Assembly: GCA_016748015.1 (NCBI GenBank)
Contig: JAAOMT010000429.1
Coordinates: 124,001-188,000, forward strand
From: Geosiphon pyriformis uo1
Lineage: Eukaryota; Fungi; Glomeromycota
Direction of reading: 5' to 3'
Length of the DNA: 64,000 nucleotides
In this document: piece by piece, positions 1,068-64,000 of the stretch
How positions within the stretch are numbered: the first letter of the stretch is position 1
Layout of the letters: each line of letters begins with the position of its first letter
Position numbers and translations under genes: made by a program
The notes under the pieces: generated by a model
What the model was told of the DNA's origin: nothing
Databases searched by the model: none
What the model saw: only the letters and a program-made list of their open reading frames with translations

Positions 1068-1144
1068 TTTATTTTTATTTTGAATTAACTCTATTATTAT
1101 TATTTTCTAATATTATATGTTCAATTCTGGTTTTTAGATCTTTA

Positions 1145-4100
1145 AATTGGGAGTAGGTTAGATCTGAATGCTACTTGTATCATAGTACTAACTAGAATTT
1201 CTAATGCTATTTTGAGATCTATGCTTACTAGGGAATGTGGGGCTATAACTAGGGATAATTGTCCAGGGTACTATAAATTGAAACCAGCATTGGTGTCATG
1301 TGTTCTTTCAGAGCAGATTCCTTCTTCGTTGTTACTGTACTATCTTACTTCTAATTTTTTAGAGAGGTTGGAATAAGCGAGATACTGTTCTGTTTCTGTA
1401 GTCTCATTTGGCTCTTGAAACAGCCTGTTCTCAATTATTAATTTGGTTTTTTCTTCGGGTTCTAGTAGTTTGTTGATAGGATATAATGTTCTCAGCAGTG
1501 AATTGAACATGAGATCACATTCATTGCAGTACTAGAAATGGCAAGGGATTAGGCAATAATCACATAATTTTGTGTTTAAGTCAGCTAGTCTCTGTTTCTG
1601 TTTTTTCAGGTCAGGGCCAATTCTTAATATCAATCTTGAAATGCATCTGGGTCATCTGTGAAAAAATCTTTGGTGATATAATCAGGTCCATCGTATTTGG
1701 GTACAAATGGATTTTCTTTGATTTCTCATATTTCGCTAAGTGTGGCACCTTCGACTTTGGCACTTGTCATTCTCCATATTTCATGCTCATTGTATGGGTA
1801 ACTATCCAATCAATTGAGTGTTTGTCTCCAGATGTTCTTGATCAGGGTTCCCTTTTGTACCCAATTGTTGATCAAGATGGTATATTGACACACTTCATCG
1901 CATGTTCCTTCTCTGCCGGGTACATTATTCCAGAGCCCTTTATCTGGCAGGCTTTCACTACAGGCAAGACATGGCGTATTGTCTCATTTGCCTTGCCGTT
2001 TTGGTTGTCCAAATTTTTCCAACACACAGAGTCTACAGTAATATTTGGTGGCAGTTGGCCATTCTTCATCATCTTCAATACATGTGCCTATCAAAGATAG
2101 CTTCTTTCCACAATCAGCACAGATTAGCTTTGGAGGTTGATAAAATGGGTTTCTTTGATTGCTAGTTGGGTAGTCCCATGATGGAGGTTCTTCTTTAGCT
2201 CTTCCTTTTTCCTTCTCTTCTCAGATTGGTGGTGGCAGTAATTCTGTTCAGAGGTCATCTGTCCAGAAAACTTGATAAGTTTCTATGATTGGTGGTGGTA
2301 TTGTGTCCTCAAATTTGATCAATGGTTGTTCCCTGTCTTGAGTTTTGAAATATCCACATGTAACAGAAACTCGGGCATGCTGCCCATTGAACGTGATTTG
2401 GAGTTTTTGGGTGTTTCAATTGAAAGTAGCATTGGCTTTTGATAACCAATCATTTTTTACAAGGGCTTGGTATTGAGTTGCTTTCATAATGAGCACTTTG
2501 ATAGGAATTTGAATTCTATTGATTTTGAAAGGAAAATTGTTAATTTCCCCTATTGGAGTTTTTGTGTTTCCGTCTGTGGTGATTATCCTAGTGGTAGCAG
2601 CATGATCCACTCAGCGATCTAGTTGATCTATGAATTGTTTTGTGATTATACTACTGGCTGATCCACTGTCAAGTATTAGCTTAATGTCTAAATTTCCAAT
2701 TCTAGCTTCAGTGTACATGGCCATTATGGGTTTATCATGGTTAATGATGGCTCCACTAAACAGACTAGTGGTATGTAGATTATCCACGTCAAAGGAGAAA
2801 ATAGTGGCAAAAGTAGTGTTTTCTGTAATAATGGCAGATAGAATAGTATAGGGGGTTTGGTTTTGACTCAAAGAGTTGGGAAGTTCTTCTACATCTTTTC
2901 CTTCTAAAGGTGTAGGGCTATCAAAATCTTGGGTTTTGTTAAGACCAAAATAGAAGGCTTGATTCGAGTATCTAAATAGTACTGGTCAAGACAAGACATA
3001 ACCATGATTGATGAGTCACGCTGGTCCACTATTAGTTTGCATTTGATTGTTATTGGAGTTTTTCCATCCTTGATTGTAGTTAATTGCACAAAGTCTTAAT
3101 TGGTTATAAATAGGGTTTTGATACTGAGGGGCTGTTTGAGCCAGTGGCTGTAATGGCTGGTAATAGTTTGAAGATGGTTGTTGGTTATATGTGAATGGTT
3201 GTAAGTATTGGGGTGGTAGATATTAGGGTGGGTATTGTGATCTCATAGCCTGCAGATATCTTGGTTGTTGATATTGATTTCCTCAGTTCTGGTCTACTAA
3301 TTTCTGTTGGCAATTCCAAGCAATATGTCTAGATTTCTGACAGTAGTAATAGTTGTAAAGATTGAATCTCCAAGGTTGTTGCTGTTGCTGATGGTTCTAG
3401 TGCTGTGGGTATTTTCTGCTGTTGTTATTTTCTTTCCGTTGTGGTAGTTGGTAGGTTTCTGCAGTTCTGGCTAAGAATCTCTCAATTTTCTGAGTTAATT
3501 TCTCACTTAATTGGGTGATTTTTGTGTCAATATCAGAGGCTTCATTAATGGCCAAGTTGATGGCTTGAGTATGATTCACTTTTTGTTCTGCAGACTCAAA
3601 ATCACGGGCAAGAGTAACTGCTTCTTGTAAGTTTGTTGGGTGGCGGGGTCTTACTGATTGTAAGATGTTACTTCTTAACTTTTTAACAAATTGATTAAAA
3701 ATTTGTCTGGAAGTGTAATAGTTTCTCTTGATTGCCTGAACCTGTCAAAGAATTTGATTAAACTGTCTAAAATAAGTGGTCATGGCTTCATGATCTTTTT
3801 GTTTTACTATGCTGAACTGATTTTGTAATCTGATGAGTGTATTAAGGTCACAAAAATATTGTAGAAAAGTAAGCTTAAAAGCAGCAAAGTCAATTGGTTT
3901 TTTTGTCAAACTTTGATACCACGAATCTGCAGTTCTTGTTAGGAAGAATGGCAGTACTTGAATAGCTCTGTCATCATTCCAATTTTTGGTGGTAATCACT
4001 TTCTTGGCTTCTGCAATCCATAAGTATGTGTTGTCTTTTTCACCAGAAAATTTTTCTAATTTGGTGATATTTTTATAAGCCATGATCTGGTTGATGAGTG

Positions 4101-5934: not shown

Positions 5935-6154
5935 ATGCTTTTCTATAGCTAAGAGATTTATTATTTATATAGCTATCAAAAGTAGTCAATGATCAAGTCA
6001 ATGACTAAATCAATAATCAAATCAATGATTAAATCAATAGTCAGGTTATTGATTAGGTCAATGATTACTATCTAAAAATAAAATGGTTAATTATGTGACA
6101 TTAATGGCTAATACATGTAATAATTAATAAGAAGTATAGATTTCAACCATAATA
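5935..6154 (-). repeat. 3' LTR remnant of E (U3 part)
   Basis: Aligns with 47251-47518, including the 12-bp GATYAGGTCAAT repeats; preceded on the minus strand by purine-rich tagagaaaataa. Confidence 0.85.
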
Positions 6155-6159
6155 TTATT

Positions 6160-6663
6160 TTCTCTAAAAAAATTAAGCTCTGGCAAAATCAAGCTATTTA
6201 TGATGTAATCTATTTGAAAAGTTTTATCTAACTTAAAGCTAACTAGTTTGTTGAAGTCTTTTGTGGATAGGATATATAATACTTGAGATAAAATGAGTTT
6301 TGTATCCAAGAAACCAAATCTTTGTATTAGGGTTTTGGCTTTTTTAGCAATAGTTAAAACTCTTAGAACATCTAACTATATAATGCCCAAAATTTCTGCC
6401 TGTATCTCTAAAGTTGTTTTTTTTATGAGTTTTATATTCTCTATGATTTCTCCAAAATGACCATAGAGTTTTAATTGCCTTCTATATGACAAATTTTTGT
6501 TTATGGACAAGATTTCTTGGATTGTTTTTCCAATTGTACTAAAAGATGAGAGTATAGCTGCTGTTATACTTTCTAACAGATATTTATCTATTTTGCTACC
6601 AATTTTTTTTTTGGTAGTGGTTTTTTTTGGTCTAATAACAGTATGTGTTCTATTGTTATCCAT
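6160..6663 (-). pseudogene. E ORF3, unknown accessory protein (frameshifted)
   Basis: ORFs 6376-6690 and 6124-6309 lie between integrase and the 3' LTR, the same position as ORF3 of B, D, G and I. Confidence 0.55.
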
Positions 6664-13678: not shown

Positions 13679-14338
13679 TTAATATTGAGCTTTGTCAAAA
13701 TCTAATTCCTTTAATTCCTCTTCTTGAATTATTTCTTGAACTTCTTTTTCGAGTATTACTTGTGTTATTTTAGTTTGTAGTTCTTCAAATTGGGCATTGA
13801 TCATTTTTTCCAATTGATTACTTGTAATTATATCCATTGCTGTATTGAGTAAGATTTCTGGTCAGTCTTGAAATCTCATATATAGCTGGTAAATAGCTTG
13901 AGCTTGTGTAGTTAGATTGTTTTTTCCCACAAATTGTTCCAGTTGTCTCAGTATTGTTGTGTCAAATAACCATTTTGTTTTGTCAGTGTACAAATTCTGG
14001 ATATTTACATGTTGTCTTAAGTGGAAATGACAATAGTTTTTCGGAAATTGTTGCATCCACCAAGTCCAAGTTTCTCTGGTAAGTTCTTGGTATAATCCGA
14101 CTATTGGTTGTTCTTTTATGACCAATTTTATCTTGGTCATGATCTTGTCAACAACATTTCCAAGTCTTTTCTGTGCTTTGTTTTGTGGTATTTTTGCCGT
14201 ATTTTTGTAACAAATGGTTTGTTGATTGATTGTAATTTTCATCTCCTGGTGTTAGATTAATTGAAAAATTTGTTGGGCTAGTGAATAGATATTGTCCATA
14301 ATTTCTATTTTTCTGATCTCTTCTGTCACGTCAACTAT
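13679..14338 (-). pseudogene. B ORF3, unknown accessory protein
   Basis: Includes ORF 13862-14242; homologous to D 33434-34091; ends ...AQY* immediately at the PPT. Confidence 0.7.
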
Positions 14339-20800: not shown

Positions 20801-21213
20801 ATTTTTTATTTTATTTTTTTATTTTTTTATTTTCTTTTATTTTCTTTATTTTATTTTCTTTTCTTTTGTTGTTCACTAAATTGATTAAAAGAATTAAGCG
20901 CTGAGTTATTGATGTCACAGATAGTCTGGTAAAAGATCCAAAAATAAGGGTAGAATTATATATTATCGGATAGCTTACTAGAAGGACACAACTGCCAGAA
21001 TAAATCCGGCCACCAAGCTGAGAAAAAAATTGGGAAAACAACTTGAGAATACAACCACTATCAACCTTATTGAATCTCTGTCCATTATACAAAGAACTCA
21101 ACCAAAACCTTCAGATAACAATATCTTCAGATATTACAACAATATTATATTAATTGAGCACCAAGTTATGGGTTTGTTATTTGATTTAAGACCCCAAATA
21201 ATCATCTGTAACA
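17820..21213 (+). mobile_element. Element F: non-autonomous family-1 LTR element (LARD/TRIM-like)
   Basis: LTRs 17820-18723 and 20309-21213; PBS 18726-18742; PPT ~20294-20305; TSD acat/gcat. The host frame re-joins as HWM(R)THYYCK. The 1.6-kb interior lacks PR, RT and IN. Confidence 0.9.
18862..19700 (+). repeat. Tandem array inside F, ~9 copies of a 70-110 bp unit (three consecutive 87-bp periods)
   Basis: The motif attattcaa-acctgatcattaaaaccccgaacattc recurs at ~18913, 18984, 19064, 19151, 19238, 19325, 19408, 19490 and 19601. Confidence 0.85.
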
Positions 21214-26500: not shown

Positions 26501-29500
26501 TGATTATTTTGAGAGATTCAAATCACAATCCTTAATGCCATCAAGAATTCAATTACTACTACCACAATTAGATTTCAGAATCATTAGTCTTTAAAAGATA
26601 ACTGATTCTGAGAAAGAAGAAAATAATAATCAAGAAAACAATAAGAAAAATCTAATTTTAGAAAATCTAAAAATTGAGATCCTGAATATTCAAACTCCAC
26701 AAAATCAGAATAATCCAAACCCCAATATTAATAATCAACAAAACTTACCTCTGATAATTATTATCAATTAGCCACTGATTGAATCAATTGCTAAACTGAT
26801 TTAATAGCCATAAGTACCATCTTAGCAACAATCACAACAACTACTTTAACCATTATCACACTCATAATAGCTGTCATTTGTAGCTCCAATGGCATATGCT
26901 CCAATTGTAAAAATTGAAAAATTTACCAGCAAAGAGGATAACACCCAAATGTGGCTAAACAATATTGAAAAAGCTATTGCAGTTAATGAATAAAATGACA
27001 CTAAAACCATGCAAGCCATTTCATACTTTTTGTAAGATACTACTAACTCATAATATCAAAGCTTAATTAACAAACTCCAAGACTTCAATGCATTCAAGCT
27101 TAAGTTTTTACAATACTTTAGTAACAATAATAGTATTAACTAACTGGCAAATATCTTGACTACTATCAAACAAGAAGAAAATGAAGCAGTTACTACCTAC
27201 CTAAGATGCTTTTATAAGAATCTGTGTCAAATTCAGACAATCTAAGCCAATTATTTCACAGTGCCACAAATTCTAAATTAATTTATCAAAGGCCTATACA
27301 GTAGCATTCTTTAACATGTACATCTATTACATTCAGCAGACTTTCAGACTGCAGTCACAAACACCAAAGATTTTGAAGCAGCTGAACTTGAAGCTAATCA
27401 TGTCCAAGCTGTAAATCTAGTAATGAACAGATTATCTGACTTGGATTCTAAATTAAAACAATTTAGTAACACAATCAACCAGAAATTAGAGGGATACTTA
27501 GCTAACAATAATAGCAATTAGGCCATCTATCAAATCTCACAATGGCAAAATAATTAAGGAAACTTTAATCGTCCCCAAAATTAATCACATTTATTATCCT
27601 TAACTAATCAACAGTGATAACAGAAAATGCATGTGTGTTACTATTATGGTAAACAAAAACATCTGCAATTTAAATGTCATAAATAGTTAAGTGATCAATG
27701 ATCAGATAATCAGTATCAAAACTCTGATCACCAACTCCAAATGCAGAATTACATCAGTAATCAATCACAAAATATTACCAACATCAACCATATTATGCTC
27801 AAGTGACTCAGCCAATATATCAAGCACTAATGTCACAGCAATTATACTCATCTTCAATATATTAATCAGCAACACCCATAATATATTAATCACTATAGTC
27901 ATAACTAGTTTATCAATCTCAACCCATTTAAACACTACTATAAATAACTATGCCCAATGGAAATTAAAGGCTGAGAACCATTCAACAAAATTAGAGATCA
28001 GTAATGGTTGTTTATTAACCAATCTTCAGCATATTTCAACAACTCTCAGAATTACATTCAAGAAATTCAGGAACTAAGTACACCCAAAATCTGAGTTCCC
28101 AGAACTATTTAAGTTTCCTAGTTACCCCAAAAAACACTTCACCTAATGACTTAGAAACAAACCAGAAACCACTTACCAGCAACATTTCACTAGCAATTGT
28201 CACCAATAATGAGTCATTAGCAGCAATTTTTCCTTTCGAGATTGAGGAACCAATCAAAGTACCTCTTTTTAGTGAAGCCACTTTTGATGTGAAGTCTATT
28301 ACTACAATGTACATAAATGCCAAAGTAGATGATCAGTTCATCAAACTAATTTTTGACAGTAGATCAGCAGACAGCATTATCACACAACAACTCATAGACC
28401 AATTAGGTCGCTAAGTTGATTATGCTGCCAGCACTAAAATTATTACAGCTAATAGAGCCACAAAAACTCTTATTGGTAAGATTAATGACTTCTTCTTTGA
28501 AGTCAATGGCATTATTATACCAATCAAAGTCTTAGTAATAGAAGCCACTCAGTACCAAGCTCTTATTGGTAATGACTGGCTAGTTAAAACCAATGTTGTA
28601 CTTGACTGGACAATGCAAGAGCTCTAGCTCAGCCAGAACAGTCACCATACACAAATACCAACAACCTGCAGACATTCAAGCCAACCACTGCATTATCACT
28701 AATTACATTCGAAAAAGAAAAGAAAAAACCCACCTGAGAAGCTTACCAAATTTCTTGGGTTAATAATGACCACAATGAGCTATTACCAATTCTAACTTGA
28801 GATGACAAAAGAAAAGGAAAAAAAAAAGACAAACCCAAAGAAATCATGGCCACTGAGGAGATAACAGGTAACTGAGAAAAATCATACTTACACAAATCTA
28901 TAAAAAAGCCATTTTACATACCACTCAAATACAAAGATTACAAGAAAAAGCTGTTCTCTATGAGAGCATGGATCATATCTGACAAAGACTATTAGACCTG
29001 TATCCACTACTATTGCAAACCATGCCACTGAAAATGCTATAAGTACCCCAAATAACAAGACAAGTAAGACAATAAATCATATTTCACTTGTGGGAAACAG
29101 TTACTTAACAAAAAAATGTAATAACATTCCTGATCAAGGAGGAACATATGACATCTTATGTCAATACACAATCCTCATTAGTGACTGAATCAGTCATAGA
29201 ACACCTTTCAATACTGCATGAAACTGTGCTTTGACATGTTTAGATGACTACTCACATAACAAAGACGAAATCTGGAGAATGGTAAGTGCCAAAGTTGAAG
29301 ATGCTTTACTTAGTAAAATATTGAAAATTAAGAATAACTCATTAAAACCAGTCAAAACTTTTTTTATTACTAACCCAAACACTTTTCTTGATATCAAAAC
29401 CAGTCCAGAAGAGTTTTATGAACATTATCAGAACTTAACACCTATCCAAAAAGAGCAAAAACAGCAGTTAGAACAACTAAATGCCAGACTGTACAAATAT

Positions 29501-31998
29501 TGCCTAATTTCCAGTGACTTTGAATATTGTGATGATTGTGATATTGTTTACAATCTACCACCATACATAATTTACACAATTCCAGAAGAACACAAACCAA
29601 TCAGCAGCTGCACATTAGAATTAGAATCAATGTTTAATTCCAATTCAAACTCCAATAACAACAATGATGATAATAATGATTCCAGCTCTGTTCAAAATAA
29701 TAATAATAACAATTCAAACTCAGATTTAAACATAGAACAATATATTACACTCTCTGATCTTACCAAAGAGCAAGAACTGAAGTGGTTTAGTGATAATAAT
29801 GAAGGTATTATGCCAAAACACACACATGATACTAATGCAGGGTTTGATCTAAAATACCCAGGAAAAAAAGCTATTAAATTGGAATCACATTCATGCACCT
29901 GTATTGATCTAAAAGTAGCACTGAAGATTTCAGTGACGACAATGGTTCAATTCACATCCAGGAATAATTTAGTGAAAAAAAGGATTAACATCAGAGAAGA
30001 AATAATTAATACAGGATATATAGGAAATATTATTGCAATATTACAAAACAATTCAGAAAAAATCTATATCATAGAGCCAAATGAAAAAATAGCACAGGCA
30101 ATATTCCTGCCTCTGGTTAAAATAGCTCAATTAGTGTTAGTAAAAAAAAGAGAAAAATTAGGAATTACAACTAGAGAAATACAAAAATTCAAATTCACAG
30201 GTAGAATAAATATACCAGTTAATATAACAGAAAAAAAAGTTATTTCTATCCGTCAATCAATTTTTATCTTATCATATAACCAGTACATATTAGCCATAAA
30301 AAAGAATGTAAAGAATCAAGCTCAGATTTTTGAAGTGGAAACTACAATTTGTAAATTAGAAAAGATTGGACTCACCAATTTTTACATACCAGCCAAAAGC
30401 CTGAAGCACATAAAAATTTCCATCCATAATACAACTGAAGATGTTTTCGAAATACCAAAAGAAACTACCATTGAATATCTAAGCACTGAAGTTGAGAACC
30501 AACTGCCAAACACCATTCCAGATTTTCTACAACTGTACAGATATGTAGATATTACATCTCAAACAATTTATGAACAGAACAAATGTTATTTGTTCCAACC
30601 AAAACAATTAGAACAGATGAACTTAAGAAATCTAGACCTATTTTAACATATGCAGATTAAAATATTACTTAACAACTTCAATAAGTGAAAATGAATTTAG
30701 TAAAACTGACATAATCTAGCATTAAATAAAGACTGAAGATGCAATGCCAATCAAACAAAAAGCATATAAGATATCATCAGCCAGCCATAAAATTATTTGA
30801 CAAGAAATCAATCAAATGCTGGACAATAGACTAATACAACCATTAATGAGTTCATAGTTATCACCAGTAGTACTGGTCCAAAAGAAGAATAGGAAGATCT
30901 GGTTTTGTGTAGATTACAAAAAACTCAATAGAGTTACACATAGAAACAGTTATTTGGATCCAAAAACTATTCGATGCTTTTGGAAGGAAAAAATAATTCT
31001 TAACACTAGATTTAGACAGCAGTTACTGGCAAGTAGCCATGAATTCAGCTGACAAAAAGAAGATGGTATTTATTACTAGAGAAGAAAATTTTGAATTTGA
31101 AGTAATATCATTTGGCTTGATGAATGCTTCAGCCATATTTCAATAACTAATAAAAATTATTTATATAGGATTGCTATAAAAATCAATAATAATCTACTTG
31201 AACAACACCAATGTATTTTCAAAAACATTTAATGATCATTTATATTATCTTTAGCAAGTGTTTGAAAGATTAAGAAAAGCTAGACTGAAGTTAAATGCTA
31301 CTAAGTGCTTCTTTGGCAAAACAGAATTAAAATTCTTGAAATATGTTATAAGCAAAGACAGCATCAAAATAGATTCAGACAAGATTGAAATAGTCAAAAA
31401 CTTTTTAATACCAACTAATTTAACCAAACTACAAGCATTCTTGAGATTTGTTAAATACTATCACCACTTTATCAAAGATTTTTCCAAACTGGCTCAACCA
31501 TTACACCAGCTCTAAACAAAAAACACCAAGTATAAATGAAAGAAAAACCAGCAAGAAGCTTTCAACATATTAAGAAGAAAGCTGATTCAAGCTCCAGTAC
31601 TAATTTATCCAGATTATAGCAAGCCATTCATTATCATTACCAATACATCAGGTCAAGCATTGGAAGCAGTATTATTGCAAAGAGGACTAGATGGAAGAGA
31701 ACATCTAGTAGTATACACCAGCTCAAATTTGAGTCACAGCAAAAAAGAATTATAGAACACCAGCACTAGAATACTTAGTTATCTATTGGACTGTCATCAA
31801 ATGGAAAGAATACTTAAGCCAAAAGTTTGAAGTATACATTAATTACAAAGGATTGACTTCAATTCAAAAACAAGAATTTAGAGACAATTACTATGCTAAA
31901 TAGAAAATAAAACTTTCACTATTTAATTATACAGTACATTACAAAAAGAAAAAAAAAATGGAAATGCTGATGGTTTGTCGTGAATGAAACAAATCTAA
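26501..31998 (+). pseudogene. D gag-PR-Cys-rich-dUTPase-RT-RNase H (disrupted)
   Basis: Capsid ~26890-27500; decayed PR LIFDSRS at ~28345; ORF 29231-30646 with dUTPase (HDTNAGFDLKY, INTGYIG, EKIAQAIF); RT 30650-31515; RNase H ends MKQI* at 31996-31998. Confidence 0.9.
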
Positions 31999-33433: not shown

Positions 33434-34091
33434 ATGGTATACATGACAAAAGATATCAGAAAATAGAAATTACCAACAATATACACACATTGGCACAACA
33501 GTTTTTCCAACTGATTCAACAACAGAATATGAAAATTACCATTAATCAACAAATCATTCGATATAAAAATACAAAGAAAAGATTTCAACACAAAGACAAA
33601 AAAAACCAGAAAACATTGTTGACAAGATAATAACAAAAGTAAAAATGGCAATCAAAATACAAACAGAAGGTGTATCATATACAAAGTTAATGATAGAAAT
33701 GTGGAATTAGTGAATACAACAATTTTCAAAAAACTTTTGTTATTACCACTTGGGACAATATCTGAATATTCAGAACTTATATATGAATAAAACAAAGTAA
33801 TTATTCAATCCAAAAATATTACAACAACTTGAACAATTTGTGAGAAAAAACTATTTAACTACACAAGCATGAGCTATCTATTGATTGCAAATTGGATTTC
33901 AAGACCAACCAGAAATCTTACTCAATCCAATAATAGACTTTATTATCATTAACCAAATAAGAAAAATAACCAATGCCTAATTTGAAAAATTACAAAACAA
34001 GATAACACAAGTAATTCTTAAAAAAAAAGTTCAAGAAATACTCAAAGACAGAGAATTAAAATTAGAAGATCTCAATGGAGCTCAATATTAA
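33434..34091 (+). pseudogene. D ORF3, unknown accessory protein
   Basis: aaacATGgta at 33434; colinear with B ORF3; ends AQY*. Confidence 0.65.
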
Positions 34092-36860: not shown

Positions 36861-38133
36861 CAAGTAGATTTTAACAACTTTACAGGAAGCACCACTTTTA
36901 TGTTACAGGTTGAAATAACAAACTAACAGATAGCAAAGGAGAACAAGATTATAAAATGATGAAAAGAATTAAAGAGAATTCAACTTCAAAGAGCAAATTG
37001 AATAAGTATGGATTCAATGTGTGAAATCAGTCTTATAAAATATTTCAGTTGCTATACTTTTCAAAAGATAACCAGGGAATCTGAAAGTAGAGGGATAGTC
37101 CGTACTGTCAACAAATGATCACACACTGGTATAATTCTATGTTTCATGTTAGTACTTTTAGAATTCAATATCAGATATCAAATGTACTTTTCAGTGTTAC
37201 CAGAGGTTTTTGGTCTCTTTTTTTGAATGTTGTAACTGTCTGTTGGTTGCAAATTCACATTTTCTAGAAGTAGTTGAACCTCTAGTAACTGAATTTATCT
37301 TCAAATTATTTCCTATAATTTGAACTGCTGGGCTTATAAGTAGAATGGCCAATTCCATGCCAGTTGCTTTGTGTAGTTATGTTGTAGTAAACGTCAACTC
37401 TTTCCCAGAAATTGCTCATCTAGAAGCTCACTAAAATGTGTAGTTACTTTGTTGTAAAAGTCAACTCTCCTACAGGAATCTTGTCTGTAGGCTACTCTAA
37501 TGATTGTAATAAAAAAATAAAAAAAAAATAAAAAAAATGTAAAAGAAATAGAATTTTATCAAGGAAAACGTTTTTCTATCTAGGCCTAGAGTTACTAACA
37601 GTTTACTGAAATTGGTAGCTAATCAATTTCAAAATGTTAGTTGGGTTTTAAGGATTTTCCAAGTGTAATAATTAAAGAATTTGGTTTTTTTGAATTATTT
37701 GATTTTTATTTTTTTTTGTGTGTGTAGGAATGGTTCTAAGTGATAAATTTAAAGTAAGATACATTTTCTCGAAGAGAAAAGCTCTTCTTTTATACAACTT
37801 GTCATAACACTATTCTATAAACTTGAACTTTGCTCTTTTCTATAATTTTGCTGAATTGAAGATACATTTCGGCAAACTACAAGTTAATTCTGCAAACTAT
37901 TAGATATTTCAGTGAATTATCAATTATTTTGGTGAATTTCTACAAATTTCAGCAAACTTTTGAATGTTACATATTTCGGGGTATTGTATGATTGATCATC
38001 GCAATTAGGTTACATCTGTGTTATGTACAAATTGGGTTATTAATTAAATGATAATTTTGGACATTTTGCTAATATAATAAGTGATAATTTAAAACAATAA
38101 TATATGCTAATTAATGATAAAGATAATTTCATG

Positions 38134-38853
38134 CTAAATAATATTTCTAATTTTGTCTGGTAACATAACCTCCTCCTTAAAACTGAGCTCCATCGAAGTC
38201 CAAGTACTGTCTATAATTTTCAGATAATAATCCAAAATTATTGAAGAAATTTGGTCTGAAAATTGTTGAAATTTCAGTTTAGTAAGCTTTCCAATATACT
38301 GAATCTTCAAAGGCTGTAAAATTGGGTTTTGTAGGACGTTTTCACAGGTATAAAATAGGTTATAAAGTCTAAGAGCAGCTCTTAGTTTATAATGACTGTT
38401 TGTAGGTCCAGCTGTTGTCTTGAATTCATTGTGGAGTTGTTTCTGAATAGCTTCTTTTGTGAGGTTTGCTGCTGTAAGCTCCCATTTTTGTTTGTAAAGT
38501 GTTTTTCCAATGTAGAAATATTTATATATTGGAGTATAGTTGTAGTTTTCTTTATTAAGACACAGTTGAAGTTTTTGTTGAATAGTAGCATTTGGTGGAA
38601 TACTAATAGAAGTGAGCATTAAGTTTTCTCTTAAAGCAAGCTTTAAAAGTTCTGGCAGGTGAATTCCAGAATAACTTCTTGTGTTCTTCTTATACAGGTG
38701 ATATTTTCGTGCATTTGGGGCTAAATTTGTAACTACTTCTATTTGGGTATAATTAATGTGGTTTCCAGTAACAGTAATGGATAATTCGGGTATTGTTTTT
38801 AAAGCTAACATTAGTTTTTGGAATAATTGTTGAATGTTTTGAGAAATAGTCAT
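38134..38853 (-). CDS. G ORF3, intact 239-aa protein of unknown function
   Basis: Open ATG-to-stop frame downstream of integrase that runs through the PPT into the 3' LTR; homologue in I from 63387. Confidence 0.75.
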   Translation of the reverse strand: MTISQNIQQLFQKLMLALKTIPELSITVTGNHINYTQIEVVTNLAPNARKYHLYKKNTRSYSGIHLPELLKLALRENLMLTSISIPPNATIQQKLQLCLNKENYNYTPIYKYFYIGKTLYKQKWELTAANLTKEAIQKQLHNEFKTTAGPTNSHYKLRAALRLYNLFYTCENVLQNPILQPLKIQYIGKLTKLKFQQFSDQISSIILDYYLKIIDSTWTSMELSFKEEVMLPDKIRNII

Positions 38854-38975: not shown

Positions 38976-40360
38976 TTAAGTGTTCAAGTTGGGAGGTTGT
39001 TCAATGACAACTATTGGTTCTAAATTTTGGGGAATATTTTCAGGATTGATTAAAGGGAAATGTATACCAATTTGTGGAATTAATGGTTTAGGATTGTTTC
39101 TGGAATTATAGTGTTTCAAATGATCTCCATGTGCAACTTTTGCTAGGATTTTGACATCAAGTCTTAGCTTATATGATCCGTTGCCTAGGATTTCATGGAT
39201 AACAAATGGTCCATCCTATTTATTTTCAAATTTTTTACTCCATTGTTTTTTGGCTTTAGTTCTGTATAAGAGAACTTTGTTTCTAATTTTAAATTCATTA
39301 GTGACTGGTAGCAATTTATTGTCATGCCATTCTTTTTGTTAAGCTTTGGAGTGTTTAATGTGGATTGCTGCTATTCATCGTTTTTTTTCCAATGTGCTAA
39401 GCAGAGTGTAGGCTCTTTGTTGTAGTGTTTCCTGAAAGTTGTCTTCATTAATTGGCTGTACTGGGTATGTTTCTACTGTGAAACTAATTGGTAATGTTAC
39501 TGTCCTTCCATAGGTTAAATCAAATGGTGTGTGTTTTGTGGTATCTTGTTTTAGTGTTCTATATGCTAGTAACACTGATAGAATAAAAATATCCTATTCC
39601 TGCTCAAAATCTGTTGAGACTTTGGCTAAAGATTTACACAATGTTCTGTTGAAACGTTTTACAAGTCCATTTGTTTGTGAATAGTAGGGTGAAGATAATG
39701 GTCTTTTAACATTGAATTGTTCACAGATTTTTTGAATTAGATTGTTCACAAAATGTGTTCCTTGATTGGATAAAAGTTTGATTGGGCATCCATGTCTACA
39801 AATAATGTCTTCGTAAATGAAGTTTGCTACTGATTTGCATCTGCTCATTGAATGGCTCTGGCTTCAAGCCATTTGGTGAGATAATCTACAGCTACTGTGA
39901 TATAACGGTTTCCTTAGTTTATAATAGGTAGTGGTCCGACTAAATCAATACCAACTCAGTCAAAAGGCTGTCCAACTTTGATTGGATTTAAAGGTTCTGT
40001 AAGGCGAGTTTTTTTTCTTCTTTGACAACTATCACAAGATTTAATGTATTCATGAATGTCTTTTCTCATTTGGAGCCAAAAGTAGTGTTTTAATGTTCTT
40101 TGGGTGGTGCTATCTTTTCTTAAATGTGCTGATGAAAGGTCTGAGTGCATGTTGTATAAGATAGTTTCCTTCTCATTTTCTTGTATTAATTTGAGTGGTT
40201 TGTTTAGGTTTCTGAAGTTTTGATAATAAATGGTGTTATTGTGTAGAAAATATTGTTTGGCTTTTTGTTGTAATCAGTGTTTTTCATCTGAAGACCAATC
40301 TGTTGGGATTGTTAGTGTCTCCAAATATTGTTTGAGATTGTTGTAGTTTTCAGGGTTCAT
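38976..40360 (-). pseudogene. G integrase (separate ORF)
   Basis: aaacaATGaac at 40360; HSDLSSAH...CDSC, GIDLVGPL, LLSNQGTHF, GPFVIHEILGNGSYKL. Confidence 0.9.
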
Positions 40361-40409
40361 TGTTTGTTGTTTTTGTTACTGCTAATTCAAATGGGTGTTG
40401 GTTTTGTGT

Positions 40410-43400
40410 TCTAATCTTGTCTCATTCTTGAGAGACAATCAACATTAGTGTGGAGCTTTTCTAGTTTGTAATATACAATGTATTGGTAGTTGGCTAAAAA
40501 TTCTGTCCATCGGGTTTGTTTGGCATTCAGCTAAGTGTTTTTGTTTTAAAGCCATTTGAGTCCAATATTATCAGTGATAATATCGAATTCTTTGGGTTTG
40601 AAATAAAGATTGAAGTGATGTAGGGCCCAGATTACTGCTGTAGTTTCTAATTCTGTTGCAGGGTAATTCTTTTCAACTGGTTTCAATGTTCTGTTAGCAT
40701 AAACAATTACTCGCTCATTTCCATTGTCATCTAACTGTGATAAGATGGCACCAAAGGCAGTATAAGAAGCATCTGTTGCTAACTGGAATTGGTTGTTGAA
40801 ATCTGGGTAGGCAAAAATTGGAGCTGTGGTTAGTTTTTCTTTGAGGATTTCAAATGCATTTTGGTGTTCAGTAGTCTATTTGTATTCGATGTTTTTGGTG
40901 GTAAGCTGGTTAAGAGGTTTTGCGATTTCTGAAAATCCTTTGATAAACTTCCAATAGTAGGAGGCTAACTCTATGAATCTTCTTAGTTCTGTAGTGTTTT
41001 GAAGAGTTTTGAAGTTTTTAATAGTGCTGATTTTTTCAGGGTCTGGTTTGATTCCATCTTTATTAATGATGTAACCAAGAAAAGCCAAACTTGTTTTTCC
41101 GAAGTAGCATTTTTTGATGTTTAGTTTCAATTCTACTTTCCATAATTGTTGAAAGACTTCTCGCAGGTGTTTTAAGTGTAATTCAAAAAATGGTGAGTAA
41201 ACATCAGTATCATAGACAACTACTGATTTCCAAAGGAGGCCTTTGTAAACAACATCCATAAGTCTTTGGAATGTTGCTGGTACATTGCATAATCCAAAAG
41301 ACATTACATTGAACTCATAATTTCTTTCTTGAGTGGTGAATGCTGTTTTGGGGTGATCTTTGGGATCCATAGCAACTTGCCAGTATTCATTCTCTAAATC
41401 TAATATCAAAAAGTATTTGGACTTCTCAAGAGCATTTAGCATGTTATCAATTCAGAAAAAAGGGTAGACATCTTCAATGGTGATGCTGTTGAATTGTTGA
41501 TAATCAACACAAAATCGTATTTTTCCATTTTTTTTTTAACTAAGACCACAGGTGAGGCCCATGGACTTATTGATGGTTGAATAAGCCCATTGTTGAGCAT
41601 TCATTGTACTTCTTCGCGGATAAATTGGTGACTTTCTAGAGCAACTTGGTAGGCTTGCTGTCGCTTTGGTTTGGCATCTCCTGTGTTGATTTGATGTTAA
41701 ACCAAATTGGTTCTTCCTAAGTCATTATTGTTTTTGGCAAAAATATCGGCAAATTCTGCAATTAGCTCTTTGAGCTGGCTCTGTTGTTGTGGTTCAAGTT
41801 GTCCCATGATGATTTGAGATAGTTTTTCTATGACAACATAGTAGTTTTAAGAGCTGGGGTTTGGGTTGATTTTTAGTAGTGAATGTCCAATAATTTCAGA
41901 GAAATTGGGGACTATTTGGGGTAATTCTTGTTGAAAGATGTTACTGTGAATGATTTCAATTTCCAAGTTATTTAATAAAACTATGAGATAATTGTTGGGA
42001 TTGTAAAAAGTAACTCAGACTTTCTTTGTTCATTCTGGAATATTAATATTTTGAATTGAGATATTATGTTCCAAGCAGATTCATTCATTGGACTCAAAAA
42101 TTTGTTGGGTGGTTGTTGACTTTGGGCAGATATAGATTTCAGGGTGTTCTCCAAAAAGTGAAATAGTGATTGGTTGAGGAAAGCATAAAATCTGGTAAGA
42201 CTCATTCTGTTTATTGAGAGCTATGTTTACTGGAACTGTAAATCGTCCAGTTGAACCAAAATCTTGGATTCCTTTTTCACTTTTTCTCAATTGTTCTCTT
42301 TAATTAACTAATTGTAAATCTGAAATGTTGATTAAAGGTAAATAAATAGCTTGGGCAATTTTTTCAGCATGTTTAATCTTAAATGGCTTGTCAGTTTTGT
42401 TTTGGAGTATTACTGTTATATCACCAGTATATCTAGCATCGATTATTCCTCCTCTGACATTGATTCCTTTGCTTGCTAGAGAGGACTGGGAGGCGATTTG
42501 AACCATTGCTCCTGACAGGATTTCAAGAGCAATTTTGAGGTTGATTTTTGTGAGAAATTTGGATTTGAGAACAAGAGCATCTTTGTTTAAATATTTTAAG
42601 TCATATCCAGCATCAATTTTATGTGCTTTTTCAGGTTTTATTCTTTGTCTATTGTTGTTGAAGTATTTGAGTTGTAAGGCAGGCTGATTTTTAATGAGAT
42701 AGATGGGTGTTGTTTCAATTTTTTCTGTTGCTTTAGGTTCTTCAAATTCAATTTCGTTTTTATCGTTTTTACTGAGCAGGGAAATGCTAAGAGCATAGCA
42801 TTCAGAGCACCATTGCTTATCACAAGGCATTATGTATTCTTCACACAATTTAATGTTCATTTGCTCTAGCTGTTGAGCTTGAGGTTCTTTAGTCGGGTAG
42901 GTGTGACTTGCAATTTGATGGTACACTTTTACTTCATCTTCATAATCATATCTAGCTGATTCCAAGATATATTTGATATATTTAGCTTTTTTCATTTGAT
43001 GAACATCTTCTTTGGTAGCTTCATTAACCAATGCCATTGCTAAGTCGAAAATCATTTCAGCATCATAGAGGTAGTGATAGAGTTTGTTGAAAGCACTGTT
43101 GTATGCTGCATTAAAGGGTGTTTCTCTTTTGACTTTTTCTGAAATTGATAAAGCATATTGGCAAGTTTGATTACAGACTTCTCCTTTCATTGCTACATCA
43201 ATCCAATTGTATTCTTCTGGTAGTGTATCTCCACAAGTCAAACAAGGAGTGTTGTTCTATTTTTCACTTTTTTTTATTAGATGGCCCTATCGTTTTCTGT
43301 GGCAAGCTTTACAGTAATAACAAGTATGATTTTCATATTCTTCTTCAGGTGAAATGCAGGCTCCCATTAAGAAGAGTTTCTTGTGGCAGTCCTTGTATTT

Positions 43401-46041
43401 GAGTAGAATGTAAGGGTGTTGTTTCTTTGGTTCTGGTTTAGAATATGGGATGTTCTATTCAGAGGTTTCTGATTTCTCTGAATATGATTTTGTTGCAAAA
43501 TACATTTGCTCAGTTTCTTCAACCCAGTTAAATGTTGATTTAAGGGCCATAAATGTTTTGACTACAGGCTTTTCTTCCTCCTCTTCAAATTCGAAGACAG
43601 GGGCTTTTTCTGATTGTTTGTTAAATGTACCACAAGTAATGGGTACTCAGGCATGTTGTCCTTAATAAAAGAGTTGTAATTCTTGGGTTTTTCAGTCTAA
43701 TTTTGCATTGGCTTTTTGGAGCCAATCATTTCTGACAAGGGTTTGATACTGGGGCACATCCATTACAAGAACTTTGACTGGAATGATGAATCCATCAAGA
43801 GTGAATAAAAAATTGTCAATTTCTCCTATGAGAGTTTTTTTCATGTCATTAACAGTGACAATTACTGTCTGAACTGGTTGGTCAACATTTCTCTTTAACT
43901 GTTGCATCAACTGGTAGGTGATGATGCTTCTGGTAGATCCACTGTCTAGGATCAAGCAAATTGTCTTTCCTTTGACTTCTGCTTCAGTGTACATAGCAGT
44001 GATTGCTTTTTGTTCATTGGTGGCTGCATTGCTGAGCAAGAATGGTCACTTATTTGCTTTGAACTCAAAAGTGAAAGATTGGCATTTTCAGCAATTCTGG
44101 CTGGTAGGATTGTGGTAGAAGTATAGGAAGGGTTTTGTTGTCATGCTGCAGCTCTACCTTCCGAGAGTACAATATGGTGAAAATCTTGTTCTTCTGGCAT
44201 TGTTAAATAACTGGGTTGAGTGTGATAGTGGTTGGGTCTTGGTTGAGTGGAATTTCAGAAAACCAATTGGTTGTTCGAACTGATTCTATTGTTGTTTACT
44301 TGGTATCAGTTTTGTGGTGTAAATTGATTTTGTGTAATCAATTTTTGAGCAGGTACTTAATAATGTTGTGTGGGTGGTTGTTAGTATTGCTGTTAGATTG
44401 GCTGTGAGATAGGCTGATAATAGTTATTTTGGTATTGGGGTCTTAGTAGATAGTAAGCTGGTGATGGTGGTTGATAATAAGATTGCTGTGGTGGAGAATA
44501 ACATTGATTACTCCTATTTTGTTGGTCTCATTGTAGCTTTCTGCAATCTTTTTTCCAGTGGCCAAAAATTCCACAGTAATGGCAATTCTAAGGCTGGTTA
44601 TTAGAAAGTAATGTGAAGTTATTTTGATTTTATCTTTGAGGTAGTTGATATCTTTGGGGTTGCTGTTGTTGTTGGTTGGTGAAATAGTTTTCGACTTTCT
44701 TTGTAAGTTGGTCAATTTTCTCCTTAGCTGCTAAGCTGGTTTCTCTAATGGCCAAGTTTACAAGTTTTGTGCAATTGGCCTCTTTTATGGCCATTTCATA
44801 TCTCTTTGCATACTGTATGGCAGAGTTTAAATCTTCTGGGGCATGTGGGCAAACTTTTTTAATCAGTTTATCCTTTAGACCAGCAATAAATTGATCCAAG
44901 ATTTGAGCATTGGAATAATAATCATTAGTTTTAAGTTGGCAAATTTGTCTGAGAAGTTTGTTGAATTTCCCAATATAAGTCATAACAGATTCGAAGAGTT
45001 CTTGTTTGATATTGCAAAAATGATTTCAAAGAGTAATGGAGATGTTGTTATCAGTGAATTGTTCTAAGAAGGCAGTTTTGAAAGCTGTCCAGTCATTAAA
45101 AAGGGTGGTCAATTTTTCGAACCATTTGCCTGCTGTTCCTTTGAGAAAGTAAGGAATTGTTCTTAACATTCTGGCAGCATTCTATTTATTTGCATCTCCA
45201 GCTTTAGTAACTTGGTCGAAACATTCTTGAGGACTGGTCTCAATATTTTTTCCATTAAATTCAGAAATTTTTGCAATATAAGCTGTTATTTTATCTTCTT
45301 TCTTGTTATCTGTTAATTCACTTTCTTCTTCAGATTCTATTTCTTCTTTAATAGTTTCAGAAATGTTTTTTTTGTTGGCTAATGTTTCAGAGTGTTTACT
45401 TGTGTTTTCTGCTAAATAGTCAAGAAGATTGGTACTAGTCTGAAGGATTTCTTGTTGTCTGGTGGGACTTCTGGGTGATGTATAATCTTCTAGTCTTAAA
45501 AATCAATTTAAAGATGAATTAGGAGTTTCTGCTTGTGCAAGTAAAGCTGGAAAAGGTGTAATAGTGAGTGAGAGTTTTGAACTGGTTCCTTGTTCAGGTG
45601 TTTGTAAGTTTTTGGCAGTTGTTTTTAGTAGTATTGGAGTATTTGGGGTGGTTTTTGAGTATTGCTTCAATTTTTGTTTGCTTTTGTTGCTTGTTTCTGT
45701 CTCTGATTCAAAGTCAAAAGAGTATTTAAACTGTACTGGGTATTTTTTTTCACAATACTCAATAATGTTAAAATTAAGTTCTTGGAAGTAAGTAGAAGTG
45801 TTTCACTGTTCAGATCTTCTGTTCCCAATTGTGAATAGTGCACTAAATTATTGTAAAAGTTGCTTCTAACTTCTGAAATGTTGTAGTTTTTAAAAAGATA
45901 ATTGTTGATGCGGTCTTCAATGTATTGGTATACTGATTTCTTGAAAACTTCAATTCCGTCTGGAATGTTGAATCTTTGCTTGCAGTGTGTGTAAATTAAC
46001 TGGTAATACTCTAGAGTTGCTGTGTCTGGTGTGGTTGCCAC
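40410..46041 (-). pseudogene. G gag-PR-Cys-rich-dUTPase-RT-RNase H single ORF (disrupted)
   Basis: Zinc knuckle CHYCGIFGHWKKDC; LILDSGS; ORF 42300-43241 with dUTPase AHKIDAGYDL/GGIIDARYTG/EKIAQAI; RT ORF 40876-41442; ends DCLSRMRQD*. Confidence 0.92.
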
Positions 46042-47729
46042 TTTGAATTTGTTGTTGCTGTGTTATTTCCGTGGGAGAGCACCAAATGTTACCAGAGGTT
46101 TTTGGTCTTTTTTCTTAAATGTTGTAACTGTCTGTTGGTTACAAATTCACGTTTTCTAGAAGTAGTTGAATCTCCAGTAACTGAATTTATCTTCAAATTA
46201 TTTCCTATAATTTGAACTGCTGGGCTTATAAGTGGAATGGCCAATTCTATGCCAGTTGCTTTGTGTAGTTACGTTGTAGTAAATGTCAACTCTTTCCCAA
46301 GAATTGCTTGTCTAGAAGCTCACTAAAATGTGTAGTTACTTTGCTGTGAAAGTCAACTCTCCTACAGGAATCTTGTTTGTAGGCTACCCTAATGATTGTA
46401 ATAAGAAAAGAAAAGAAAAATAAAAAAAATGTAAAAGAAATAGAATTTTATCAAGGGAAACGTTTTTCTATCTAGGCCTAGAGTCACTAACAGTTTATTG
46501 AAATTAGTAGCTAATCAATTTCAAAATGTTAGTTGGGTTTTAAGGATTTTCTAAGTGTAATAATTAAAGAATTTAGTTTTTTTGAATTATTTGATTTTTT
46601 TTTTTTTTTTGTGTGTGTAGGAATGGTTCTAAGTGATAAATCTAAAGTAAGATACATTTTTTCGAAAAGAGAAGCTCTTCTTTTATACAACTTGTCATAA
46701 CACTATTCTATGAACTTGAATTTTGCTCTTTTCTACAATTTTGCTGAACTAAAGATACATTTCGGCAAACTACAAGTTATTTCTGCAAACTATTAGATAT
46801 TTCAGTGAACTATCAATTATTTCAGCAAATTTCTACAAATTTCGGCAAACTTTTGAATGTTACATATTTCGGAGTATTGCATGATTAATTATTGCAATTA
46901 GGTTATATTTGTGTTATGTACAAATTGGGTTATTAATTAAATAATAATTTTGGATATTTTGTTAATGTAATAAGTGATAATTTGAAACAATAATATATGC
47001 TAATTAATAATAAAGATAATTTCATGCTAAATAATATCTCTAATTTCATCTGGTAACATCAGTTACATTTTATTCAATAATCTTCAAATACTACAATTAC
47101 ACATTTTAAGAAAAGAGTAAGAAATAACCAATAAGTAATCTTTTATCTCAAGATGTTTAGATACTTGAAGATAAGAAAAAAGAAATTAGCAATAAAAGTA
47201 TAATTGAAATGAAAGTTGTTATTTTATTTCTTTTTTTCTTTGATTCTTATATGCTTTTCTACAGCTAAGAGATTTATTACTTATATAACTATTAAAAAAA
47301 GTTAATGATTAGATCAATGACTAGGTTAATGATTAGGTTAATAATCAGGTCAATAATTAGGTTATTGATCAGGTCAATGATTAGGTCAATGATCAGATCA
47401 ACAGTCAGGTCTTTGATTAGGTCAATGATTACTATCTAAAAATAGGATGGCTAATTATATGACATTAGTGGCTAATACATGTGATAATTAATAAGAAATA
47501 TAGGTTTCAACTGTAACAATACAATCTAAAACTAAGATAAAAATTTGTAATTTTACCAAAGTTAATAATAATAAACTATAAATATTTATAAATATTTTTT
47601 TTATTAAAGTTTAATAAACAAGACCCAAAAACTACTTAGAATAATATATCAAACTAAGTAATCTAAACTAGACACTAATCATGCATTTTTCACACATAAC
47701 CAACCACTCAGACCAGTTAAGGACAAACT

Positions 47730-52672: not shown

Positions 52673-55175
52673 GTGATCTGATGTAGAAAATTGCTACAAG
52701 CAATATTAGGAGAATGAACAATTCTACAAAACAGATTGATATCATTTGTTAGCACAAAGACATAAACAATTTGGTTTCTATTTTCACAGAAATAAAGCTG
52801 AAAGAAAAGGTTTACCCATAGATTGTCAACAAGTTTAATGGTATTCAGGTATTTATTTTTAATTTAGATTCTGGGTATTTGAGTGCTAGTGTTGTAATTG
52901 TCATGAATTTTTTTTTGGCAAAACATGTGTATAAGGTTTCTAAGATGCCTGGTTGGCTTCTTTCTATTAAGTTACTTTTCAAAAATAAACTTTCTGTTTC
53001 AATTTTGGGGCTTTATGCTGGTGTTTTCTCAGTGGTTTGATTTTCTCAAGCTAGTAAAATCAATTTTCTGATTGTGAAGACTGTGAATAAGTTTTCTTTT
53101 ATCATTCTAGGTGGCAATTTTAATAAAAATGATTTCCATAAATGTGCTAGTTTCAAGAAGTGCCTTGATTTGGGATTGGTTAATTTGTTGGTTAGAAGTT
53201 TACTTACAAGATTGTTTACATAGAAGAATTCTAAAGGTGTGTTTAAAACAATTGATTACATGTTTGTCTTTTTGAATTTGGTTAATACAATAGTAGATTG
53301 TAAAGTTAAAGATATTAGTGATTACTTTAACTCAGATTACCAAGCCATTTTTGTTTCTGTTGGTTTGAATGGCTTGTTGAATATACATCTGAATTTTTTG
53401 TGTAAACAGGCTAATAAAAACCATTGAAAATTTGACATTAAATATGTTGATGAGACAAAATAGACTAATTTTAAGAATACTATGATAACTAATATAGTCT
53501 TGTTTTTTGATAAGTTTATCTTTTTTAATAAGTTTTCAGATCTAGATTTTATGTAAGATGTTGTTTGCAAAGTGATGATTTTTTTGGTTAGAAAGATATT
53601 TGAGAAAAAATGGTTCAAAAACTTTGATAATGTCTTTACCAAGAACTTTTCAAAATTTCACAGACTGAAAGTTTTGATTTTAAAGATTGTTAAGACTTCT
53701 CATATGAAAGGCAATAATAGGTTTGCATTTTTAATAAGCAGCTAAACAGTTTTAAACTTTGATAAGACTTTAACTATTCAAGTTCTATTCAAGTTTTGAT
53801 CATGTAAGATTTACTCTTTTTGGCATAAGAAAAACTTATTATGCTTTTAAGCTTGCTGAATTTCTAAAGACTAAAAAGTCAGATATTAGGTCTGCCATTA
53901 ATAAATAAATAGAAAGTTTTGCTTCTGATAAAGATCACACTATCAAGAATGTATTAGAACATTTTTTTTATAAGGTGGAATTGGATTATCTAGTTATTAA
54001 TAATAAATTGATTCTGGAATCTGATCTGGTTAAGGCCAAGATAGATGTGATTATAGAAGGATAGATTAGAGAATGTGTAATGGTTTCTGATATCTTTGAT
54101 AATTGGTTTTGTTAATACCAGCCATTGAAATATGTTTTTAATAATGCTTTTTCAGATGTAATGTGTCCAGTTGGCTTTAATAAATTGTTTTGTGTAATTT
54201 TTGATCTGCTTGATGACAAAGCTGCTGGTTTTTCTAATATTTCAAATAAGCTTTGAAAACATTACAACAAATCAGTTTTAGATATGCTTTTAGTGTTTTT
54301 GAACACTTGTTTGTCTTGCAAATTTATGCCCAGTTCTTGAAAAGATACTTGGATCTCAATAATCTTCAAACCATATAAATAAAAGGATGTTTTCATAAAT
54401 ACTTGTCCTATCACTCTAATTGAAATGGCTCATAAGATTTTTTCTAAGATTTTGTCTAATAAGATTTTATTGACATGCAACATTTTTAATGTTCTTTATG
54501 GAGACAATTTTTCAGTTCTAAAAGATACAATTATGCAATCTCCAATTTGTGTAGTTGACTCTATAATAAAAGATGCTTTGGAAAAGAACTGTGAACTCTG
54601 GCTGGTTTTGCAAGACATACAAAAGACTTACAATTCTGTTGGTTGGGAGCAGCTTAAAAAAAGCTTGATTAGAATTAAAATATATAGCAAATTTATTTCT
54701 TTTTTCAGTAGTATTCACGATAATTGCATCAACAGAGTTATGACAGACTTTGATTTAACAGGTAGTTATTATGTGCATGATGCTTTAGATGAAGAAAAAG
54801 TCTTCTTACTTTTTCTTTGGTATATATTTTACAATTCTCTTCTTTGTAAAGTCAATAGACAAAAAAGTGTGTATAAATATAGATTAAATTTTTACTTTAT
54901 TTTAAGAAATAGTCATGCAAAATCTAAAGCTAGGTTGTCTTCTTTTTTCACTATTAAAGCTTTTGTTGATGATACAATTTGGGTTGATAGCAGTCAAAGT
55001 GCCACCCAACATATTTTCAATGTTATCAGTGAATTTTTTTGGATTAATAACATTTCTATCAATACCAACAAGACTGTAGTTATTCTTATTAATTGCAAAG
55101 TTGTTAGTTCTACTTTGTTTATTAGTGGCTTGCCTATTTTTATTGCCAAAAAAAAAGAATTTCATTAATACTTGG
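52669..55175 (+). pseudogene. LINE ORF2: APE endonuclease + reverse transcriptase (disrupted)
   Basis: KIATSNIRRMN, IFTEIKL, ILGGNFN, TIDYMFV and SDYQAI (APE motifs); CPITLIE, VLQDIQKTYNSV, AFVDDTIWV, INTNKT and YLG (RT motifs). Confidence 0.88.
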
Positions 55176-56156
55176 TGTTACCAGACGAAATTAGAGATAT
55201 TATTTAGCATGAAATTATCTTTATAATTCTTATCATTAATTAGCATATATTATCGTTCAAATTACTACTTATTATATTAGCAAAATATCTGAAATTATTA
55301 TTTAATTAATAAACTCAATTTGCACATAACATAAATATAACCTAATTGCAATGATCAATCATGTAATACTCTGAACTATATAACATTCAAAAAGTTCGCC
55401 GAAATTTGTAGAAATTTGCCGAAATAATTGATAGTTCACCGAAATATCTAATAGTTCACAGAAATAACTTGTAGTTCACTGAAATGTATCTTTAATTCAG
55501 CAAAATTGTAAAAAAGAGCAAAGTTCAAGTTCATAAAATAGTGTTACGACAAATTGTATAAAAGAAGAGCTTCTCTTTTCGAGAAAATGTATCTTACTTT
55601 AGATTTATCATTTAGAACCATTTCTACATACACAAAAAGAAATAAATATCAAATAATTTGAAAAACCAAATTCTTTAATTATTGTACTTGGAAAATCCCC
55701 AAAACCCAACTAACGTTTTGAAATTGATTAGCTACCAATTTCAGTAAACTGTTAGTGACTCCAGGCCTGAATAGAAAAACGTTTCTCTTGATAAAATTCT
55801 ATTTCTTTTACATTTCTTTTATTTTTCTTTTTTTTTCTTATTACAATCATTAGGGTAGCCTACAGACGAGATTCCTGTAGAAGAGTTGACTTTCACAGCA
55901 AAGTAACTACACATTTTTAGTGAGCTTTCAGACAAGCAATTCCTGGGAAAGAGTTGACGTTTACTACAATGTAACTATACAAAGTAACTGGTATGGAATT
56001 GGCCATTCCACTTATAAGCCCAGCAGTTCAAATTATAGGAGATAATTTGAAAATAAATTCAGTTACTGGAGGTTCAACCACATCCAGAAAATGAGAATTC
56101 ACAGCAAACAGGTATCAACAACATTTAAGAAAAGAGACCAAAAACCTCCAGTAACA
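55176..56156 (+). repeat. 5' LTR of I
   Basis: tgttaccagac...ccagtaaca; reverse-complement homologue of 46087-47058. Confidence 0.95.
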
Positions 56157-56201
56157 TTTGGTGCTCTCCCATGGAAACAACATAGCAAAAACAACTTCAA
56201 A

Positions 56202-61831: not shown

Positions 61832-61877
61832 AACATAAAAACAACACCTATTTGAATTAACAACAAAACAACAAACA

Positions 61878-63263: not shown

Positions 63264-63386
63264 TTTAAATTTATTATTATAGTTATCTTCTTATAATTTA
63301 GAAACAATCTCACAAAAACAAAACAAAAAATAACATAAAAACCCATATACCAAAAGCAATTTTCTTTTATTTTCAAATCTCTTATA

Positions 63387-64000
63387 ATGACTATTCCTCA
63401 AAACATTTAACAATTATTCCAAAAACTAATGTTAGCTTTAAAAACAATATCCGAATTATCCATTACTGTTACTAGAAACCACATTAATTATACCTAAACA
63501 GAAGTAGTTACAAATTCAGCCCCAAATTCACGAAAATATTATCCATATAAAAAGAACACAAGAAGTTATTCTGGAATTCACCTGCCAGAACTTTTAAAGT
63601 TTGCTTTAAGAGAAAACTTAATGCTCACTCCTATTAGTATTCCACCAAATACTACTATTTAACAAAAACTTCAACTGTGTCTTAACAAAGAAAACTATGA
63701 CTATACTCCAATATATAGATATTTATACATTGGAAAAACACTTCACAAACAAAAACGAGAGTTTACAGCAGCAAACCTCACAAAAGAAGCTATTCGAAAA
63801 CAACTCCACAATAAATTTAAGACAACAGCTGGACCTACAAACAGTTGTTATAAACTAAGAGCTGTTCTTAGACTTTATGACCTATTTTACACCCGTGAAA
63901 ACGTCTTACAAAACCCAATTTTACAACTTTTGAAGATTCAATACATTGGAAAGCTCACAAAACTGAAATTTCAACAATTTTCAGACCAAATTTCTTCAAT
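63387..64000 (+). pseudogene. I ORF3 (disrupted, runs off the window)
   Basis: Homologue of G 38134-38853 with CAA>TAA stops. Confidence 0.75.

Follow-up and report, generated by a model that had tools for sequence, protein, structure and literature searches.

The 64,000-nucleotide (nt) stretch analyzed here (the window, to which all coordinates refer) covers positions 124,001 to 188,000 of contig JAAOMT010000429.1 from the glomeromycotan fungus Geosiphon pyriformis. It is a nest of long terminal repeat (LTR) retrotransposons, with a GC content of about 30% and CpG at 0.16 of expectation. One of these, element G (47058-37195, minus strand), is flanked by LTRs and by a 4-bp target site duplication (TSD), CTGA. 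Its gene order is that of Ty3/Gypsy elements (gag, protease, dUTPase, reverse transcriptase (RT), RNase H, integrase (IN)), and its LTRs with target duplication and PR-RT-RNaseH-IN order of pol (PR, protease) place it among the Ty3/Gypsy LTR retrotransposons. A preliminary description of the window had proposed a sense open reading frame (ORF) between integrase and the 3' LTR, and this frame, ORF3, is present: it begins with an ATG 122 nt past the integrase stop, in a frame of its own separate from integrase, and its final 32 nt fall inside the 3' LTR. Homology across lineages, purifying selection, a helical structural model and the lack of a transmembrane stretch make it very probable that ORF3 is a real, selected, non-Env accessory gene, as had been suggested. 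The features of G are listed below; other elements in the window are denoted by letters or, for one short element, by its coordinates (17820-21213), and L001 is a metagenome locus.

46087..47058, minus strand: 5' LTR of G, with the primer-binding site next after it
38976..45800, minus strand: decayed gag-PR-dUTPase-RT-RNaseH-IN of G, with 24 stops in 1828 aligned codons
38134..38853, minus strand: ORF3 of G, 239 amino acids (aa), open, with an ATG start; 209 relatives at E<=0.001 among 431 candidates
38169..38190, minus strand: conserved GAGCTYA motif and polypurine tract (PPT), a cis element preceding the 3' LTR in G, B, D, E, the short element and L001
37195..38165, minus strand: 3' LTR of G, differing from the 5' LTR at 61 of 972 columns (58 of them transitions), with the TSD

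It had also been claimed that every autonomous copy with a 3' end carries ORF3. The candidate copies in the window, complete or partial, are:

63387..63998, plus strand: ORF3 of element I, 87% identical to that of G, with 3 stops in 204 codons, truncated where the window ends
13679..14308, minus strand: ORF3 of element B (B/D family), with 2 stops in 209 codons, ending before the PPT
33463..34091, plus strand: ORF3 of element D, with a frameshift and 6 stops in 211 codons
20250..20301, plus strand: B-type ORF3 tail, the last ~50 nt only, before the PPT of the short element 17820-21213 (blastn E 2e-5)
1103..1161, minus strand: probable ORF3 tail remnant in short element A (blastn E 8e-4, tblastn E 0.1, hidden Markov model (HMM) E 0.025)
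6124..6663, minus strand: ORF occupying the ORF3 position in element E, with homology to ORF3 unsupported by searches

A profile built from G alone did not find B or D. The link runs through intermediate sequences: P0161, an intact B-family protein, matches G ORF3 at E 5e-6, and P0178, from a different subfamily, matches both G ORF3 (1e-11) and B ORF3 (6e-25). By these sequence matches the copies in G, I, B and D are homologous, and for them the claim stood. It failed for E, whose ORF scored 0.2% against the ORF3 family in hhalign, gave no HMM match and no tblastn match with five of five queries, and should on this comparison be left out of the family. Element E has an integrase only 36-38% identical to the others, a 3' ORF that is unrelated or very distant, and its own U3 repeat of ~12 nt; a second E-type LTR piece adjoins G (window 47251-47511).

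The open state of G ORF3 beside a dead pol had been singled out as special, a view that the stop counts do not bear out. Pooled over G, I, B and D, stops occupy 11 of 863 ORF3 codons and 84 of 5515 aligned gag-pol codons, and the I, B and D copies are not open. The chance of finding no stop in G ORF3 is ~0.04, with G one copy picked out of four; the open frame fits luck and, since the two stop rates are alike, there is no sign of ORF3 protection after insertion. Likewise, the described read-through of the PPT into U3, likened to the placement of nef, is true of G but is not common to the families. GAGCTYA precedes the purine tract in all six element ends compared; the frames of G, E and L001 read through both, whereas B and D read the motif in a frame shifted by one and end before reaching the PPT. 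Coding overlap with U3 is thus inconsistent (32 nt in G, similar in L001, none in B/D), unlike that expected of a Nef-like gene, and on the sequences compared the read-through is incidental, its frame depending on family.

Evidence for selection comes from B and D, the single informative copy pair. Their ORF3 copies differ by transversions at 32 of 380 non-degenerate sites versus 11 of 46 four-fold degenerate sites (p=0.003), a contrast absent in two shifted frames. The same test gave 6/545 versus 17/81 in RT and 2/374 versus 4/60 in integrase. In this pair ORF3 is under purifying selection, much weaker than that on RT or integrase; the pattern named beforehand as speaking against a functional gene, a ratio of nonsynonymous to synonymous substitution rates (dN/dS) near 1 with no frame conservation, is not seen. 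Between G and I, dN/dS says nothing about selection: transitions make up 40 of their 43 differences, and the in-frame, shifted-frame and antisense values are 0.44, 0.39 and 0.21. Among G, B and L001, identity is 54-57% in integrase and 18-28% in ORF3, by which measure ORF3 evolves far faster than integrase.

The search that returned the 209 relatives listed 120 clusters, 24 of them 238-239 aa long; among the best 120 relatives, all 119 that are named are hypothetical proteins of Geosiphon pyriformis. Further searches matched 333 of 2161 and 52 of 2418 candidates, and a profile run against 1.84 billion representatives found 35 matches, the six most distant being four from Geosiphon and two from metagenomes. 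A metagenome scan had at least 592 stretches among the matches listed, two of which were confirmed as ORF3-bearing. At L001, an ORF3 homolog with 28% identity follows RT, RNase H and integrase and precedes the PPT and LTR. Judged by homology, ORF3 is present in at least five subfamilies in Geosiphon and in two lineages from metagenomes, its position being seen indirectly or not at all in two subfamilies (in one, from gene models in which the C-terminal part of integrase is joined to ORF3). ORF3 is also spliced to integrase or other repeat fragments in many annotated Geosiphon gene models (P0042-P0054, P0182-P0187), chimeras that are probably annotation artefacts. On a metagenome contig (L002, 398-811), an extra 137-codon open frame lies directly upstream of the ORF3 homolog, so some lineages may have two 3' genes.

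The predicted protein has two parts, as listed here with a candidate motif inside the second.

38620..38853, minus strand: N-terminal module, residues 1-78, predicted at low confidence as helix, beta-hairpin, basic disordered linker and helix
38218..38592, minus strand: core all-helical domain, residues 88-212, conserved in the alignments of all lineages (predicted local distance difference test 91, predicted TM-score 0.83)
38353..38457, minus strand: candidate helix-turn-helix, residues 133-167 (helices H133-148 and H153-167), around a conserved G149-x-x-N152 turn, suggested by conservation and by ParB-like matches below significance

The modelled core agrees with the helical protein proposed in the preliminary description. 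Env had been excluded there for want of a signal peptide or transmembrane stretch, and the second of these points held: the best 19-residue hydropathy was 0.27-1.29 in all eight members tested. No match to a well-described retroelement domain was found. Pfam gave no consistent family match, including for 12 members scanned, and neither did PHROGs, NCBIfam or a PDB sequence search; weak rows for FtsQ, RGS18 and importin in the family and PDB searches were rejected. An enzymatic ORF3 of the GDSL esterase or DEDDy exonuclease kind is not indicated: neither Pfam family was seen in the 12 members, no Asp, Glu or His column is conserved, and the predicted core is all-helical. Foldseek returned no match at E<=0.001 and no viral fold match; below significance, ParB/KorB-like structures matched over the whole domain. 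A likeness to DUF1016_N/YhcG was considered and not borne out (hhalign 0.5-0.9% against 31 YhcG sequences). An Atlas search with G ORF3 gave no usable match.

The LTRs of G carry candidate target sites for such a protein.

46759..46849, minus strand: U3 repeats in the 5' LTR of G, five copies of an 11-nt motif at an exact 20-nt spacing, ~70 nt ahead of a TATA-like box; putative sites for ORF3
37866..37956, minus strand: U3 repeats in the 3' LTR of G with the same 11-nt motif; candidate ORF3 sites

The 11-nt motif occurs five times in the 5' LTR of G, four times in its 3' LTR and five times in the 5' LTR of I, with copies 20 nt apart and ahead of a TATA-like box in both elements, and not at all in eight other LTRs, and several of the G and I copies retain CpG. 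B-type LTRs carry a different repeat motif and L001 a third, and none was found in the LTR of another family among the 11 examined. These motifs were picked by eye from the same LTRs, so that as evidence only their spacing and family restriction count. The short element 17820-21213 carries B-type repeats, yet only ~50 nt of ORF3 beside its PPT, an arrangement that fits a product supplied in trans.

The likeliest reading of these observations, to which we still give somewhat less than an even chance, is that ORF3 is a small DNA-binding protein that recognizes the U3 repeats of its own family and promotes transcription or resists CG-methylation silencing. ORF3 is a conserved accessory gene, the third gene of a fungal Ty3/Gypsy clade with dUTPase; on this reading it would be expressed from a message of its own or by reinitiation and not as part of Pol, and its soluble helical product would bind the LTR of the element and thereby activate the element or shield it from silencing. 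A ParB/KorB-like helix-turn-helix in the core might recognize the U3 repeats that lie ahead of the TATA box and differ by lineage, the N-terminal module might serve dimerization, and action in trans could let short elements drop ORF3. The transactivator and anti-silencing roles guessed at in the preliminary description are thus hinted at by the ParB/KorB-like matches and the lineage-specific repeats; for the integrase chaperone named alongside them we found no support. Profile comparison with 12 ParB sequences scored 0.2% in hhalign, below a reversed control at 0.5%, and no Pfam match was obtained. Family-specific repeats in non-coding DNA are present, as with the VANC proteins discussed below, but are common in LTRs and so say little. 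It is unlikely, in our judgment, that the further step also holds, in which a fungal LTR clade acquired a bacterial ParB/KorB-type DNA-binding domain as its own transcription or anti-methylation factor, co-evolving with the U3 repeats family by family in VANC- or Tas-like self-activation.

A factor acting on the RNA side, either an RNA-silencing suppressor or a helper of RNA export or packaging, would bind element RNA or host silencing proteins instead; we consider it rather unlikely, as the PNPase match that would point to it spans only the first half of the core, below significance, and no known RNA-binding motif is present. The helical bundle predicted for the core would also suit a protein-protein adaptor, whether an integrase partner or targeting factor replacing a chromodomain or a particle component. 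ORF3 does follow integrase directly in all placed copies, and no chromodomain match was seen in the integrase pieces scanned; still, we think this role quite unlikely, the gap in identity between ORF3 and integrase being unexpected for an obligate partner and ORF3 being read in a frame of its own past the integrase stop. A further candidate role, for a gene at the Env position in a coenocytic host group, is that of a stand-in for Env or a movement protein that lacks a membrane anchor and helps the element to pass between nuclei, hyphae or hosts. Functions other than that of Env have been suggested for the env-like ORFs of plants (PMC7264820), but with no transmembrane stretch in any of the eight members and no viral fold match this role is very improbable. 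Least probable of all is a captured host gene carried as a passenger of little function for the element: its constraint is weaker than that of pol, and the best Atlas match for P0149 (score 0.94, with 176 features in common and recognition below threshold) is to a eukaryotic cluster of 98 hypothetical proteins, most of them from Mucoromycota, but the frame and the fold pattern persist between lineages with integrases just ~55% identical, and the B-D pair gives a purifying signal.

Several known systems offer comparisons with ORF3. Additional ORFs lying behind pol and ahead of the 3' LTR form a known class of mostly unknown function (PMC7264820, PMC5408684, PMC13547354). ORF3 resembles the plant env-like additional ORFs (PMC7264820) and rotifer ORF3 types (PMC5408684) described there in position, sense and presence in most family copies; those are transmembrane-bearing env-like proteins or enzymes (GDSL esterase, DEDDy exonuclease), whereas Geosiphon ORF3 is soluble, without conserved acidic or His residues or a Pfam match. 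VANC of Arabidopsis VANDAL transposons is, in the part of PMC5735166 available, likewise a fast-evolving accessory protein encoded by a transposable element, with family-specific tandem-repeat targets, a functional analogy only. VANC comes from plant DNA transposons, and no sequence or fold link to ORF3 was found. To the ParB/Spo0J/KorB DNA-binding domain (HTH_ParB, PF17762) similarity is below significance by structure and profile; ORF3 lacks the ParB N-terminal CTPase domain, has longer helices and sits in a eukaryotic retroelement. Small non-Env genes beside or overlapping the 3' LTR also include foamy virus Tas/Bel and lentiviral Nef, Tas being a DNA-binding LTR activator. Searches of Pfam, PDB and viral folds revealed no homology between ORF3 and these retroviral genes, and the LTR overlap of ORF3 is absent in B/D. 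On the DNA-binding reading, ORF3 would work like VANC or Tas while being a member of neither.

We rate ORF3 as a new accessory-protein family within the known class of extra 3' ORFs. No description of it was found in a literature search by title and abstract start, a search whose reach excluded the Geosiphon genome paper, Repbase, Dfam and GyDB, where annotation may exist, and the available part of a survey of fungal LTR elements does not mention such an ORF (PMC3248453). The family is old, selected and, by prediction, well folded, with candidate target sites open to testing. LTR elements make up 41.2% of the Geosiphon genome according to the available part of PMC11952901. Should ORF3 act against CG-methylation silencing, it would reveal how a clade of LTR elements came to occupy so much of a genome, an expansion that ParB/KorB-type self-activation could help to explain, and would provide a set of small proteins with differing DNA specificities. 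Either way, hundreds of Geosiphon 'hypothetical proteins' are transposon ORF3 copies and not host genes.

Several further observations concern the elements themselves. LTR pairs in the window differ almost entirely by transitions, as expected, together with the low CpG, from methyl-cytosine decay. G and I (55173-64000) diverge by ~7-10% in LTR and ORF3 and by ~11-20% across gag-pol, with synonymous excess confined to pol, which suggests a recombinant with a common ORF3-LTR end. A dUTPase domain lies between protease and RT in G (42300-43256), I (59087-60049) and D (29222-30646). The short element 17820-21213, with LTRs, a near-perfect 4-bp target duplication, an 87-bp tandem array (18859-19653) and a piece resembling the D protease-dUTPase region, is likely non-autonomous. 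At 54383-55168, a remnant of a non-LTR-type reverse transcriptase is split by element I.
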